A stretch of 47,072 bases of DNA from Candidatus Heimdallarchaeota archaeon (GTDB lineage: Archaea; Asgardarchaeota; Heimdallarchaeia; Heimdallarchaeales; Heimdallarchaeaceae), in contig DXJF01000107.1 in NCBI GenBank assembly GCA_019057375.1, positions 1 through 47,072 on the forward strand, read 5' to 3'. Shown here in pieces: positions 1,941-39,439 of this stretch (position 1 is its first letter; the number at the start of each line of letters is the position of its first letter). The notes beneath the pieces were generated by a model, which worked only from the letters and a program-made list of their open reading frames with translations, did not search any database and was not told where the DNA came from. The position numbers and the translations under genes are program-made.

Positions 1941-3236
1941 ATGTCAGAAGAATTTGATTTTGATGTGGCTATTGTTGGTGCAGGACCTGCTGGTATTTCA
2001 GCAGCTTTAACACTTGCTCAAGCTGGTATCGAAACTGTTGTTTTAGAAAGAGGACAATATTCTGGTGCTAAGAATGTTAGTGGTGCAGCTTTATATGGCC
2101 CCATCCTAAATGAAATAGTCCCAAATTACTGGGAAGATGAGAATTCATTTGAAAGATATCTTACAACCAAAAAAATAACGCTACTCTCAGAGTCTAAAAG
2201 TGTAACAATTGATGCAGATCTTAGGAATTTCGCTCAAGTTCCATACAATGGTGTGACAGTTATAAGACCTAAGTTTGACCGCTGGTTAGCAGACAAAGCA
2301 GAACAAGCTGGAGCTATGATCTTACTAGATACAATGGTAGAAGACTTAGTGTGGAATGATAAACAAGTTATTGGTGTAAAATCAGGAGATGAAGTTCTTA
2401 AAGCGAAACTAGTAATTATTGCAGAGGGTGCAAATAACATACTGGTTGAAAAAGCAAAACTTGCTAAAAAACCAAAAGCTCGTCATTTTGCTCTAGGTAT
2501 GAAAGAGACCTATAAACTACCTAAGAAAAAAATGGAAGAGAGATTTCATTTAGATGATAAAGAAGGTATTAGCAATGAAATTTTAGGGTATTCAAAAGGT
2601 ATTCCTGGTGGAGGGTTTTACTACACAAATCAGGATACTGTTTCTTTCGGACTCATTCTTAATATGGATGTTTTAACCAAGAAAAAACTGGAAGCACCGG
2701 AAGTTTTTGAGGAGTTCAAGGAACATTCCTATATCAAAAAACTGCTGAAAGACGCCGAGATGATAGAATATTCTGCCCATATAATTCCAGAAGGTGGTTT
2801 CAAACACATGCCAAAATTATATGGTAATGGCGTTTTAGTCGTCGGTGATGCAGCTAGTATGGTTTTGAATGCAGGTTTATACATAGAGGGGATAAATTTC
2901 GCCTTAGAATCAGGTAAAGTGGCTGGAGAAGCAGCAATAGAAATATTGCAGACAGATGATTATACTAAAAATCAAACTAAGCTATACAAGAAGAAACTTA
3001 AGGAGAGCTTCGCTTACAAAGACCTTAAAACATTCAGAAGAGCTTCACACTTTCTAGAAAATAAAATGATGTTTACCTATGTTCCTGATTTATTGACAGG
3101 ATTGTTCGAAAAACTATTACGAAATAATGGATATCCAAGGAAGAGAATAGTAAAATCAGCCATAGGATACGTTTTCAAGAAAGGAAAATTGTTTAGATTA
3201 TTTAAACTTCTAATAGGAGCGGTGAGATCATTATGA
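1941..3236 (+). CDS. fixC: ETF:quinone oxidoreductase flavoprotein FixC
   Basis: GAGPAG Rossmann motif, LERG..GAKNVSG, RPKFDRWL, EYSAHIIPEGG, VGDAA; followed by fixX. Confidence 0.92.
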   Translation: MSEEFDFDVAIVGAGPAGISAALTLAQAGIETVVLERGQYSGAKNVSGAALYGPILNEIVPNYWEDENSFERYLTTKKITLLSESKSVTIDADLRNFAQVPYNGVTVIRPKFDRWLADKAEQAGAMILLDTMVEDLVWNDKQVIGVKSGDEVLKAKLVIIAEGANNILVEKAKLAKKPKARHFALGMKETYKLPKKKMEERFHLDDKEGISNEILGYSKGIPGGGFYYTNQDTVSFGLILNMDVLTKKKLEAPEVFEEFKEHSYIKKLLKDAEMIEYSAHIIPEGGFKHMPKLYGNGVLVVGDAASMVLNAGLYIEGINFALESGKVAGEAAIEILQTDDYTKNQTKLYKKKLKESFAYKDLKTFRRASHFLENKMMFTYVPDLLTGLFEKLLRNNGYPRKRIVKSAIGYVFKKGKLFRLFKLLIGAVRSL

Positions 3237-36335: not shown

Positions 36336-37562
36336 TTGAGTACAAAGAGTCTTGAATTCCAATTTTTACATTATGAACCTGTTTATTCAAATCTAAAAAC
36401 ATCATATAACGAATATTCTAAACTGTATAATGAATTTAAAAAAGCAGGAGAAGATAATGTTGCATTCAAAGTTTTATCATATTATTATGCTGGAATGCTT
36501 TATGTTGTTAAAGGAGATGAATTATTCAGTAAGGATAAGAAAGCTGATGCTCAAAAAAACTATGAAGAATCACTGAAGTTGCTAATAAGAGCAAAAGCTT
36601 CTAGAGGGAGAGAAGGAGATAGAATTTTTGATGAGATGGTTAAATGGATAAATTATGCTGAGGGAATGTGTCGAATTTGCATTTCATTTCTTGAACAAAG
36701 CATAGAAAGTCAAATTCAAGCAGCAAAAGAAGCAATTGGTTTCTTTGAAAAATTTACAGAAAATCGCAAAAGTGACGATAATCAAATTGATGTGAGTGTT
36801 TCAAATTCAAGAATAAGTTATGCCAAATATCTCTATGAGTTAAAGCTTTCTGAATCAATTACAGATAATACAAAAGAGTCAAAGAAACACCTTCTTTATG
36901 CAAGAACAGAATTAATGAAAGCCAACTTTTTATTTAAATCACTTGATGAAGAAATGGAAGATATGCAAAACAAGATAGATGAGATAACTAAATCACATAT
37001 AATAGGGAGAGCTGAATTGTTTTGGGATCAAGGGACAGAGAATATAATCATAAGTAACTTCAATGAAGCTTTAAGGTTTTTTGCAATAGCGTCCAAATAT
37101 TATTCTAGAGCAAGTGTAATTTGCTCTAATTTTATGGAACAACGTCTGTATCTAGCTTTATCTCGAATCACTCAAGCTAGTCAACTTGAATCTGAAGCTA
37201 ATGAGCTCTATAAAAGAAGAGATAATCCAATAGATGCAAGTAATAAGTTTAAAGAAGCAGTTGAATCAGTAGATATTGCTTTAGGTCTTTTATCAAGTAT
37301 CAAAAGCGAATCACTTATCAAAAACATGACTGCTCAACGATCTTTCTATGAAGCATTGGCTTCAGAAACAGAGGGAATTGCTCTTTTTGATCAAGAACAA
37401 TTCAAAGATGCGTTATCAAAATTTGAGGAAGCTATGAAAAGGCTTGAAGAGACTCACATAAGTGCTTCAGAGGGTAATCTTGAACAACTATTAGAGTTTG
37501 TTAGAACTGCAAAAAGTGAAGTTGAAGGATACATTTCAATGGCTCAAGCAATGTCCACATAG
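36336..37562 (+). CDS. All-alpha helical-repeat (TPR-like) protein
   Basis: Repeated A/G..F/Y..A...Y helical patterns. Start moved to TTG 36336 (GGTG SD 5 nt upstream) because the listed 36063 start overlaps the HAD gene. Confidence 0.65.
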   Translation: MSTKSLEFQFLHYEPVYSNLKTSYNEYSKLYNEFKKAGEDNVAFKVLSYYYAGMLYVVKGDELFSKDKKADAQKNYEESLKLLIRAKASRGREGDRIFDEMVKWINYAEGMCRICISFLEQSIESQIQAAKEAIGFFEKFTENRKSDDNQIDVSVSNSRISYAKYLYELKLSESITDNTKESKKHLLYARTELMKANFLFKSLDEEMEDMQNKIDEITKSHIIGRAELFWDQGTENIIISNFNEALRFFAIASKYYSRASVICSNFMEQRLYLALSRITQASQLESEANELYKRRDNPIDASNKFKEAVESVDIALGLLSSIKSESLIKNMTAQRSFYEALASETEGIALFDQEQFKDALSKFEEAMKRLEETHISASEGNLEQLLEFVRTAKSEVEGYISMAQAMST

Positions 37563-37571
37563 TTAGTTATC

Positions 37572-37585
37572 GAAAACTTTAAACC
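37572..37585 (+). promoter_or_regulatory. BRE/TATA for the C/D sRNA
   Basis: GAAAAC-TTTAAACC, ending ~35 nt before the C box. Confidence 0.45.
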
Positions 37586-37615
37586 AAAACCCGATTATTT
37601 TCCTATGAGGAATTA

Positions 37616-37672
37616 GCTAATGATGACACAACGGTCGAGTGAAAACATGATCGCTGATGGGCGGTCTGAGGC
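37616..37672 (+). ncRNA. Dual-guide box C/D sRNA (2'-O-methylation guide)
   Basis: C box ATGATGA 37620-26; D' guide 37627-38; D' GTGA 37639-42; C' ATGATCG 37647-53; D guide 37654-65; D box CTGA 37666-69; short terminal GCT/GGC stem. Guides are complementary to universally conserved rRNA (SSU ACCGCCCGUCA; LSU GACCGUCGUG). Confidence 0.88.
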
Positions 37673-37687
37673 AGTTCTTCATTCTTT

Positions 37688-39382
37688 CTAAGCAACAACC
37701 GTGTTGATAATTTCTTGATATTTATAGAATGAGAGCCTACGATGACCAGTTTGTCCAACTAATCCTAGTGAATTTCCACCTGATAAGTCATCTATTAGTG
37801 AGAAATAATTGAAACCTTTTATCTTGCTTTCTTTTACACATATCTCAAGTAATCTAGCTAAAGCAGCTTCTTGAATTCTTTCACCGTACATAACAGCTGA
37901 TACACCAAATTCACACACCCAGAAATCTTTTGTGTTACTTGTTACATCTTGAAGATAGGGGGCTAAATCAAGATCCCTACCATGAATTATATAAAAGTCG
38001 ATTCCCATGAAATCAAGAGTAGTATTTTCCCATAATTCTTCGAATACACTAGTTTCATAAGAATATTTATCAAAATCATTAAATGAGAGATTTACACCTA
38101 TCTCTGTATCATTTGTAAAAGTTCTAAGATAGCTCAAAGAATCGTTTATAGTAGACGCCCAGATTGCAGGTGTTTGTAACTCTTTAACAAATGCTGAAGA
38201 GAACCCTAAGGGTTCTGGGTAAATAAGTAAGTATTCAGGAGTACAGTTAAGAATCAATGTTTTAGCTTGTTGTTCGATGGCATCAACATAATCAGTGAAA
38301 TTGACCCCCTGATAATTCCATGTTGGAAAACCGTATCCATACGTTGATAACATAATTTTAAAACCATTTGCATGGAGTTGGTCTGTGATATCTACAAGTT
38401 CTGTTAGATTGTTATCAATAATCTCTGCTTTAATATCAATTCTTACAGTGGAAACATTCAGTTCCTTGATTAAAGCTAATTCCTCTTGAAAGAGTTCTTC
38501 ATAATTAGCCAACAGGGTTTGTTGATAAGTAATTGTCTTTAATGATACACTGAATTCAAAATCAGTTCTTTCAAGATATGTAGGTTGATAGTCTGAGCCT
38601 TTAAAATCACTGAATGAAGTGAATGTACCAATATTTAGAAGGCTAAATACTATTAGTAAAATAAATAGAATGGCAAATATTCCTTTTGAACCATTATCTA
38701 GAAAAGAAAGTATTGTTGACCACATTGCAGGTTTCTTCTTTTCTGGAATCACAATCTCTTCTGTAAATACACTCTCTTTTGAATCTTTACCTTGCTTTTT
38801 GGTTTTTTTAGTTGGAGTTTTCTCAGGTTCCGGTTCTGGTTCAGGAGGTCTCATAAATTTTATAGGAGCAGCAAGGGGAATCAAAAGAAGTGCAGGAAAG
38901 AAATAACCTACTGGACCATATAGAAAAGCTTGGAAAGCTGAATATCCAACTGAAGGAATAATCATAATCCACTCTAGAATTCGAGGCAAGCCAAAAATTG
39001 TTTGAGCTTCAATGAAATTTAGTAATAACATAAATGACTGCAATGATAAAACTGTGAAGAAAATATAGTTAGCTTTGCCCCATCTTGAGACTTCAATTGA
39101 ATTTTTGAATGCTAAAATTGTAGCTAATAAGTTGTTTACAAACAGAAGAAAACAACCTACTAGACCCCCCCAAACAAAATCTACTGACAATGAAAAATTA
39201 AACCAAAAGAAGAAAAGAATCGTTCCTACAAAGATTAGTCCGGCAGATGATAAATTCCATGCTTTCCTTTCATAAAGAGGATTTGATAAAGAATTATAAA
39301 TCAACTTAAGTGACAAACCCGCATTATATAACAGTGCGATATAAACAAAAATGAATGAGGCTTCAGGAGTAATAATAGACAT
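37688..39382 (-). CDS. Multi-TM membrane protein fused to a clan GH-A-like TIM-barrel glycoside hydrolase
   Basis: Several hydrophobic N-terminal segments, a PPEPEPEPE linker and one more TM. Then VRID, LIYPEP (acid/base-like), DFMGIDFY, WVCEFG (nucleophile-like), GFNYFSLID. Confidence 0.65.
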   Translation of the reverse strand: MSIITPEASFIFVYIALLYNAGLSLKLIYNSLSNPLYERKAWNLSSAGLIFVGTILFFFWFNFSLSVDFVWGGLVGCFLLFVNNLLATILAFKNSIEVSRWGKANYIFFTVLSLQSFMLLLNFIEAQTIFGLPRILEWIMIIPSVGYSAFQAFLYGPVGYFFPALLLIPLAAPIKFMRPPEPEPEPEKTPTKKTKKQGKDSKESVFTEEIVIPEKKKPAMWSTILSFLDNGSKGIFAILFILLIVFSLLNIGTFTSFSDFKGSDYQPTYLERTDFEFSVSLKTITYQQTLLANYEELFQEELALIKELNVSTVRIDIKAEIIDNNLTELVDITDQLHANGFKIMLSTYGYGFPTWNYQGVNFTDYVDAIEQQAKTLILNCTPEYLLIYPEPLGFSSAFVKELQTPAIWASTINDSLSYLRTFTNDTEIGVNLSFNDFDKYSYETSVFEELWENTTLDFMGIDFYIIHGRDLDLAPYLQDVTSNTKDFWVCEFGVSAVMYGERIQEAALARLLEICVKESKIKGFNYFSLIDDLSGGNSLGLVGQTGHRRLSFYKYQEIINTVVA

Positions 39383-39439
39383 CTTTCTCATGTGAAAAAA
39401 GATGACACGTTTAAATGTCTTACCATTTAAAGTAGAAAA

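Follow-up and report, generated by a model that had tools for sequence, protein, structure and literature searches.

The window analysed here, a stretch of 47,072 nt from a metagenome-assembled genome (MAG) of Candidatus Heimdallarchaeota (159 contigs, 89% complete), contains a real, unannotated small guide RNA of this Heimdall-group (Asgard) archaeon. With a probability of roughly 80%, we read it as an archaeal box C/D sRNA gene of ∼76 nt (positions 37606–37681) with its own transcription, which is predicted to guide methylation of 16S C1402 in the decoding centre and of the equivalent of 23S 2590 next to the peptidyl-transferase centre. Its box anatomy, its complementarity to the organism's own rRNAs, its conservation and covariation among relatives and the genes of the protein machinery are seen directly in the genomes compared, and from these we infer that the RNA would be expressed, assembled into an RNP and used for the methylations.

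Genomic locus and box anatomy of the sRNA

The sRNA is placed in a 125-nt gap between two convergent ORFs. An ORF for a weak-TPR protein ends at 37562 on one side of this gap, and on the other side lies the gene of a 567-aa protein without Pfam domains, of which the stop codon occupies 37688–37690. The 567-aa protein (window 37691–39391, minus strand) is ∼93% identical in five other Heimdallarchaeota MAGs, and the sRNA gene adjoins the gene of this protein in four of the five (loci L022–L025).

From 37616 to 37672 the sequence reads GCUA-AUGAUGA-CACAACGGUCGA-GUGA-AAAC-AUGAUCG-CUGAUGGGCGGU-CUGA-GGC, and both guide spacers (C–D′ and C′–D) are 12 nt long (Table 1). A sequence-only reading of this stretch had claimed C, D′, C′ and D boxes together with two 12-nt guides in exactly this interval, and all of them are found as claimed; the interval is correct for boxes and guides but not for the extent of the gene, because a 12-bp terminal stem enlarges the functional unit to ∼37606–37681. 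As in archaeal box C/D sRNAs, a box C that fits RUGAUGA lies towards the 5′ end and a CUGA box D towards the 3′ end, and the terminal stem brings the two into a K-turn. It also has internal D′ and C′ boxes, in which both GA dinucleotides are invariant among 25 orthologs, guide spacers of the usual ∼12 nt, and at least 9 bp of complementarity to its own stable RNA with a Watson–Crick pair at N+5, which is G-C in both guides. We also weighed whether the true C′ box might be UGAUGG, within the D guide, and rejected this, as the K-turn geometry and the 12-nt C′–D spacing are kept in the orthologs.

Table 1. Features of the box C/D sRNA gene, in coordinates of the window
Feature	Position	Strand	Remark
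BRE/TATA-like promoter CGAAAACUUUAAAC	37571–37584	+	22 nt upstream of the first terminal-stem base
Terminal stem, 5′ strand, UGAGGAAUU-A-GCU, A37615 bulged	37606–37618	+	MFE and centroid fold, covariation
Box C, AUGAUGA	37620–37626	+	UGA and final A kept in nearly all orthologs
D′ guide, CACAACGGUCGA	37627–37638	+	N+5 nucleotide G37634
Box D′, GUGA	37639–37642	+	degenerate, GA kept
D′–C′ linker, AAAC	37643–37646	+	gives K-loop
Box C′, AUGAUCG	37647–37653	+	degenerate; C6 can pair with G1 of D′
D guide, CUGAUGGGCGGU	37654–37665	+	N+5 nucleotide G37661
Box D, CUGA	37666–37669	+	sequence read and orthologs
Terminal stem, 3′ strand, GGCAGUUCUUCA	37670–37681	+	fold, ortholog duplexes, covariation
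U-rich tail, UUCUUUCU	37682–37689	+	abuts the convergent gene's stop codon (37688–37690)

At gathering thresholds, Rfam gave zero matches in the window. In a relaxed search, the Pyrococcus-type C/D sRNA models sR20, sR2, sR18, sR41 and sR14 align end to end with 37616–37671, the best of them being sR20 with 26.2 bits (E 6e-4) versus a threshold of 44, and the other four reaching 8–13 bits. In these alignments, the resemblance is limited to boxes and spacing.

Distribution in relatives and protein machinery

Orthologs were searched by BLAST and with a sequence profile built from 16 orthologs. The sRNA is present in 25 of the 30 genomes of its GTDB family, covering all five genera, so the search in other genomes that the sequence-only reading had proposed was successful within the family. 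The three other families of the same order gave no match at E ≤ 0.01, and weak matches in other families of the class comprise the D-guide half only. Moreover, the sRNA is also conserved in genomes with different flanking genes. The linker, the box details and the flanks vary among the orthologs, unlike the guide cores; the C′–D spacer is 12 nt in nearly all parsed orthologs (n = 25), and all relatives from which the rRNA targets could be obtained have identical target sequences.

The same reading had also asked for genes of fibrillarin, Nop5 and L7Ae to be present and for rsmI to be missing. A Nop-domain gene is found at C82:23474–24151 with a fibrillarin gene alongside (C82:24334–24996), the two likely forming a Nop5–fibrillarin operon, and an L7Ae-family gene at C80:14244–14507. 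No RsmI (TIGR00096) was detected in this 89%-complete genome. Bacteria methylate the ribose of C1402 by the protein enzyme RsmI.

Promoter, terminal stem and internal K-loop

The BRE/TATA element claimed upstream of the boxes is real: the motif cGAAAACyTTAAAC recurs in most of the 25 orthologs at a fixed distance, 22–23 nt from the start of the stem. On the other side, T-rich sequence follows the stem in all orthologs, and the U-rich tail of the window sRNA is likely an archaeal termination signal, which would end transcription. Taken together, the conserved BRE/TATA spacing and the U-rich run after the stem fit an independent transcription unit. A weak Rfam match to RAGATH-27 (window 37567–37611; 15.3 bits, E 7) rests wholly on the promoter words UUAUCGAAAACUUUAAAC and is probably just the common archaeal BRE/TATA consensus.

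The terminal stem consists of 12 bp and one bulged A in both the MFE and the centroid fold (z = −2.4), and A37619 is unpaired, as expected of the first bulge nucleotide in a K-turn. A terminal duplex of 10–14 bp is predicted in 23 of 23 distinct orthologs, with position −1 unpaired, and this duplex begins immediately behind box D and leaves a single nucleotide between itself and box C, as in a K-turn. In this anchored register, 9 of the 12 pairs are changed on both sides among the orthologs, and the covariation score of 0.52 compares with 0.33 for shuffles, none of 500 shuffles scoring as high; all slid registers of the stem have lower covariation scores than the anchored one.

Covariation is also seen between the internal boxes of the 25 orthologs, where a G at D′ position 2 is accompanied by C at C′ position 5 (6/6), a C by A (7/7) and a U by U or G. 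Most orthologs have a 3–4 bp hairpin between D′ and C′ that leads to a true K-turn, and one compensatory change from U-A to C-G is found in this hairpin in G005. The clade of the window has lost the D′–C′ hairpin, and its AAAC linker gives a K-loop.

A 12-bp stem followed by a U-rich run, touching the stop codon of the minus-strand gene in a convergent gap of 125 nt, could also be seen as a bidirectional terminator between the two genes, in which case there would be no RNA gene and the box-like words in the hairpin would be due to chance. We consider this so improbable that it deserves hardly any weight. Terminators carry no constraint inside the hairpin loop, which is where the guide cores are conserved; moreover, the element has its own conserved promoter at fixed spacing, its C′ and D′ boxes covary, its complementarity to rRNA (see below) is exact, and it persists where the flanking genes differ.

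The D′ guide and its predicted target in 23S rRNA

The organism's own rRNA genes, one 16S (1511 nt) and one 23S (3578 nt), were found on contig C12. The D′ guide forms 10 consecutive Watson–Crick pairs with positions 3073–3082 of the 23S rRNA, which at this target reads UAGACCGUUGUG and contains GACCGUUGUG, the C-to-U variant that had been predicted for this organism from the guide. The N+5 nucleotide of the guide, G37634, is opposite C3075, the first C of GACC. Numbering in the 23S rRNA was anchored at the A-loop G (E. coli G2553 = yeast G2922); there is no indel on the way, and by this count C3075 corresponds to E. coli 2590 and to yeast C2959. Hence, the own 23S rRNA pairs where the sequence-only reading had placed the D′ target (LSU 2588–2597, with C2590 at N+5), and it does so with 10 consecutive Watson–Crick pairs versus the 9 of 10 that had been claimed.

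Outside the gene's own antisense strand, a stretch of 10 consecutive Watson–Crick pairs for the D′ guide occurs only once in the genome. The duplex energy of −14.0 kcal/mol is unremarkable compared with shuffled guides (85/300), so the D′ guide draws its support from the consecutive Watson–Crick pairs and from conservation instead. Of the 25 orthologs, all except G016, which has UAACGGUC, keep the D′ core CAACGGUC, and changes of A to G and of C to U in the D′ guides of relatives keep the pairing as G-U.

The C–D′ spacer is 12 nt in the clade of the window, in G006 and in G028, and 11 nt in all other orthologs (G008, G012, G002, G005, G014, G023, G020, G001, G027, G030, G029, G025, G021, G026 and others; loci L051–L075). 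With the 11-nt spacer, N+5 moves from the first C of GACC (2590) to the second (2591); under the N+5 rule, the exact methylated base of 23S rRNA would vary across the family and would not be fixed.

The D guide and its predicted target in 16S rRNA

The D guide forms 11 pairs (9 Watson–Crick and 2 G-U) with positions 1348–1358 of the own 16S rRNA, ACCGCCCGUCG, within a target region that reads ACCGCCCGUCGU, and its N+5 nucleotide G37661 is opposite C1352, which is E. coli C1402. The site proposed from sequence alone, SSU A1398–A1408 with C1402 at N+5, is thus the one with which the own 16S rRNA pairs. Two details of that proposal did not survive: the duplex contains two G-U pairs where a single one had been claimed, and the predicted 16S variant CCCAUCA is absent, the own 16S rRNA reading CCCGUCG. 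For the perfect complement, CCGCCCAUCA, the genome has a single match on contig C94 besides the gene's own antisense strand.

Along the duplex, seven Watson–Crick pairs are followed by G-U, two further Watson–Crick pairs and G-U; with seven contiguous Watson–Crick pairs, it falls short of the rule of nine contiguous Watson–Crick pairs used by Lui et al. 2018 (PMC6009581). Three of 300 shuffled guides do as well as or better than its energy of −20.2 kcal/mol. In the genome, the target cores have no second copy, and tRNAs were rejected as targets of the guides, to which they show weak matches only. Among the 25 orthologs, the D-guide core AUGGGCG is kept in all but G028 (ACAGGCG). Where the U at D-guide positions 8 and 11 is replaced by C, as in G028 and for position 11 also in G007 and G004, the replacements turn the G-U pairs with G1405 and G1408 into G-C. 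Moreover, 16S C1402 is the best rRNA target of every D-guide variant in the relatives, including the distant G077 and G053. 16S G1408 is not a eukaryote-like trait, since crenarchaeal 16S rRNAs also have G1408.

In G007 (L073) and G004 (L074), a 3-nt insertion precedes box D (GCGAUGGGCGAA-CGA-CAGA), so that C′ and the box next to the stem are 15 nt apart. As far as can be judged from these two sequences, either the register of the D guide would be shifted or a new ACGA box would be used, and in both genomes the D guide may be in the course of decay.

This insertion, the two G-U pairs of the D duplex, and the mismatches in some orthologs (A-C at position 7 in G028 and G077, or mismatches at positions 1–2 in G023 and G016) raise the question whether only the D′ guide methylates, with the pairing of the D guide to the 1400 region of 16S rRNA being non-methylating (as a chaperone) or in decay. 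In Pyrobaculum sR25 and Thermoproteus sR35, the pairing at the same 16S site has a conserved mismatch at N+5, and the case of sR25 implies that pairing there need not mean methylation. In the window sRNA and in most orthologs, however, a G-C pair lies at N+5 with six further Watson–Crick pairs around it, and the D-guide core is kept across five genera and even in the weak relatives from two other families. The same ribose is methylated in bacteria, by RsmI. It is methylated in eukaryotes as well (PMC8817022). We therefore regard a D guide that does not direct methylation as very improbable.

The second-best rRNA site of the D guide is UUCGCCCAUUAA, at positions 3039–3050 of the own 23S rRNA in the 3′ strand of helix 92, where N+5 falls on C3043, the equivalent of E. 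coli C2558, 32 nt upstream of the D′ target. The RNA could thus be a real C/D sRNA of which the D guide acts instead, or also, on 23S rRNA near the D′ target, the guides serving for methylation or as a folding chaperone. The pairing at this site (8 Watson–Crick and 2 G-U pairs, −15.9 kcal/mol, Watson–Crick at N+5) is not matched within 50 nt of the D′ target by any of 2000 shuffled guides, at each of the four transition differences between the 16S and 23S sites a guide G or U pairs with both, and double guides to closely linked sites are a known archaeal pattern (PMC7994747; PMC6009581). The 16S duplex is, however, better by 4 kcal/mol, and the two sites are intrinsically alike (CGCCCGU vs CGCCCAU). 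A C at guide position 8 and/or 11, found in G028, in G007 and G004 and in the family-f7 relative G077, improves pairing with G1405 and G1408 of 16S rRNA and mismatches the 23S site, and the change from U to A that G001, G020 and G023 carry in the 23S site is uncompensated in their guides. The same GAUGGGCGG guide, with U opposite G1405, is present in Sulfolobus sR122 beside an unrelated second guide, which makes the wobble old and independent of this 23S pairing. Given the sR122 wobble and the loss of the 23S match in C-bearing orthologs, selection on U8 and U11 of the D guide for a second 23S target is largely rejected, and we consider an action of the D guide on 23S rRNA unlikely. The preferred reading remains a double guide, with 16S C1402 as the target of the D guide and the equivalent of 23S 2590 as that of the D′ guide.

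Proposed mechanism

In the mechanism that we propose, transcription would start ∼22 nt downstream of the BRE/TATA element and end in the U-rich tract. The RNA ends would pair as the 12-bp stem that closes the C/D K-turn, and GUGA and AUGAUCG would form the internal C′/D′ K-loop. L7Ae would bind the K-turn and the K-loop and recruit Nop5–fibrillarin dimers, as in the known mechanism. Each guide would then form ∼10 bp with rRNA, and 2′-O-methylation would follow on the nucleotide that faces guide position five, counted from D or D′. The D′ guide, on the 5′ strand of 23S helix 93, would bring fibrillarin to the ribose of C3075 (E. coli 2590), a predicted site that matches yeast Cm2959 and human Cm4506; the D guide, on 16S 1398–1408, would bring it to C1402 (own 1352), which would match yeast Cm1639 and human Cm1703.

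Comparison with known guide RNAs

The Heimdall RNA shares with the archaeal double-guide C/D sRNAs (Omer et al. 2000; Gaspin et al. 2000; PMC4644070; PMC7994747) the C/D′/C′/D boxes, two 12-nt guides, the N+5 rule, L7Ae, Nop5 and fibrillarin, and targets in functional centres of rRNA. Those sRNAs usually have 50–70 nt and short stems, whereas the Heimdall RNA has ∼76 nt and a 12-bp covarying stem; its C′ and D′ boxes are degenerate, and it belongs to no Rfam family at threshold.

For the 23S site, Dennis et al. 2015 (PMC4644070) predicted C2864, in the numbering of their pan-archaeal alignment, for several sRNAs, including an sR30 that we assign to Pyrobaculum calidifontis; C2864 was converted to E. 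coli 2590 by offset arithmetic from C2880 = E. coli C2606. The D′ guide of this sR30, AAAAACGGUCUG followed by GCGA, addresses the same 23S base from the same half of the RNA as the Heimdall D′ guide, and its D′ and C′ boxes (GCGA, AUGACCG) resemble those of the Heimdall orthologs G027 and G030 (GCGA, AUGAACG). It differs in that its D guide is directed to 23S C2880 (E. coli 2606), with no 16S target, and in being a short-stemmed RNA of a hyperthermophilic crenarchaeon; the likeness is one of sequence, and common descent would be conjecture. The crenarchaeal predictions show the same ambiguity, 2864/2865, as the Heimdall family at 2590/2591.

For the 16S site, Dennis et al. 2015 (PMC4644070) listed C1389* (= C1402) for an sR25 and an sR35, which we assign to Pyrobaculum and Thermoproteus, respectively; the asterisk apparently refers to the conserved mismatch at N+5 that Lui et al. 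2018 (PMC6009581) described. The guides to the 16S-1400 region in sR12, sR25, sR35 and sR122 pair with ACCGCCCGUCG in the same register as the Heimdall D guide, with N+5 on C1402; sR25 and sR35 differ from it by the conserved mismatch at N+5, and the partner guides of all four are unrelated to that of the Heimdall RNA. Hoeppner and Poole 2012 (PMC3511168) named sR12 of Pyrococcus and Sulfolobus as the counterpart of snR70/SNORD43 and left homology versus convergence undecided. The sR122 of Sulfolobus acidocaldarius is given with no predicted target (NP) in Additional file 1 of Dennis et al. 2015 (PMC4644070). In our own reading, its D′ guide GCGAUGGGCGGC, followed by UUGA, forms 10 Watson–Crick pairs and one G-U pair with Sulfolobus 16S CCGCCCGUCGC, with N+5 on C1402. 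This guide is nearly identical to the Heimdall D guide, including the U opposite G1405, whereas in sR122 the element is a D′ guide with an unrelated partner and in the Heimdall RNA it is the D guide.

In eukaryotes, Cm1639 guided by snR70 equals Cm1703 guided by U43, and Cm2959 guided by snR73 equals Cm4506 guided by U35, both being kept as far as plants and Dictyostelium (PMC8817022); the eukaryotic equivalents given by the sequence-only reading (Cm1639/snR70/SNORD43 and Cm2959/snR73/SNORD35) are correct by the table in that paper. The rRNA nucleotides are equivalent, as checked by offsets on the sequences, and the mechanism is the same, but eukaryotes use two separate, mostly single-guide snoRNAs, whereas the Heimdall archaeon has both guides on one RNA. 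The SNORD43/snR70 and SNORD35/snR73 families, like all other eukaryotic families, were absent among Rfam matches of the window sRNA up to E = 10. Since, in addition, the likeness is limited to the part imposed by the target, homology to SNORD43 and SNORD35 is unproven. The proposal that one RNA guides two sites shared with eukaryotes is supported for both guides. The sites are nevertheless not peculiar to Asgards and eukaryotes, because crenarchaeal sRNAs are predicted for 16S C1389 and 23S C2864. The same two guides paired in one RNA were not found elsewhere in the literature compared, and our literature search returned no paper on Asgard or Heimdall C/D sRNAs.

Implications for core rRNA methylations

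As the kind of RNA, its mechanism and both targets are already known or predicted in other archaea, the present find is solid and fairly ordinary, and it leaves the known mechanism of C/D sRNAs unchanged. With it, the sparse Asgard record gains a well-supported C/D sRNA that is conserved family-wide. The predicted sites are common to all eukaryotes, Crenarchaeota and Heimdallarchaeia, and bacteria methylate C1402 too, through a protein enzyme, which supports a small and very old core of ribose methylations in the decoding and peptidyl-transferase centres. The sRNA is chiefly of value as a single data point on how core rRNA methylations continue from archaea into eukaryotes. Moreover, the family offers natural test material: with the 11/12-nt spacer polymorphism, the methylated base should move by one nucleotide, and the switch from K-turn to K-loop at C′/D′ and the unusually long terminal stems could be used likewise.

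Other sequences in the genome

Three home-made scans for C/D sRNAs were applied to the genome, based on strict boxes with 9 Watson–Crick pairs, on long stems and on tRNA targets. Real and decoy rRNA gave 38 and 29 matches, respectively, and 8 and 5 at score 9; with counts so similar, the scans provide no census, and only the window sRNA and an RNA on contig C63 stood out. This second strong C/D sRNA is located at G000:C63:32516–32566 (plus strand; locus L081:137–187) and has box C AUGAUGA and box D CUGA. Its D guide UCCUAGCUCACU forms 9 Watson–Crick pairs and one G-U pair with the own 23S rRNA (−18.7 kcal/mol), with A3062 at N+5, the equivalent of E. coli 2577 and of yeast Am2946 (snR71, human U29). 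An 11-bp stem (GAGAAUAGCG/CGUUAUUCUC) flanks this sRNA, which is conserved in 14 of 20 genomes of the genus. The core of its D′ guide, ACAACC, faces the A-loop GGUUGU with 6–7 bp only and puts N+5 on the equivalent of U2552, which is a weak assignment.

The guide modules of the window and C63 sRNAs might be direct ancestors of snoRNAs of LECA, from C1402 to SNORD43/snR70, from 2590 to SNORD35/snR73 and from 2577 to SNORD29/snR71, a possibility that we find doubtful and offer tentatively. A mesophilic Asgard lineage with very few C/D sRNAs would then have kept only the core sites inherited by eukaryotes, and eukaryotes would later have split the double guides into single-guide snoRNAs.

A weak profile match (21.6 bits) lies at G000:C54:52682–52737 on the minus strand, where GAUACAACGGUCUAUG represents 16 nt in common with the D′ guide region of the G008 type. 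Lacking C and D boxes, it is either a chance match or a decayed fragment.

The 16S (C12:94353–95863) and 23S (C12:79333–82910) rRNA genes, both on the minus strand, are unlinked and 11.4 kb apart. The own 23S rRNA has 3578 nt versus 2987 positions in the archaeal model, and this length is consistent with the large Asgard rRNA expansion segments that a passage of PMC10134959 reports with reference to Penev et al. 2020.
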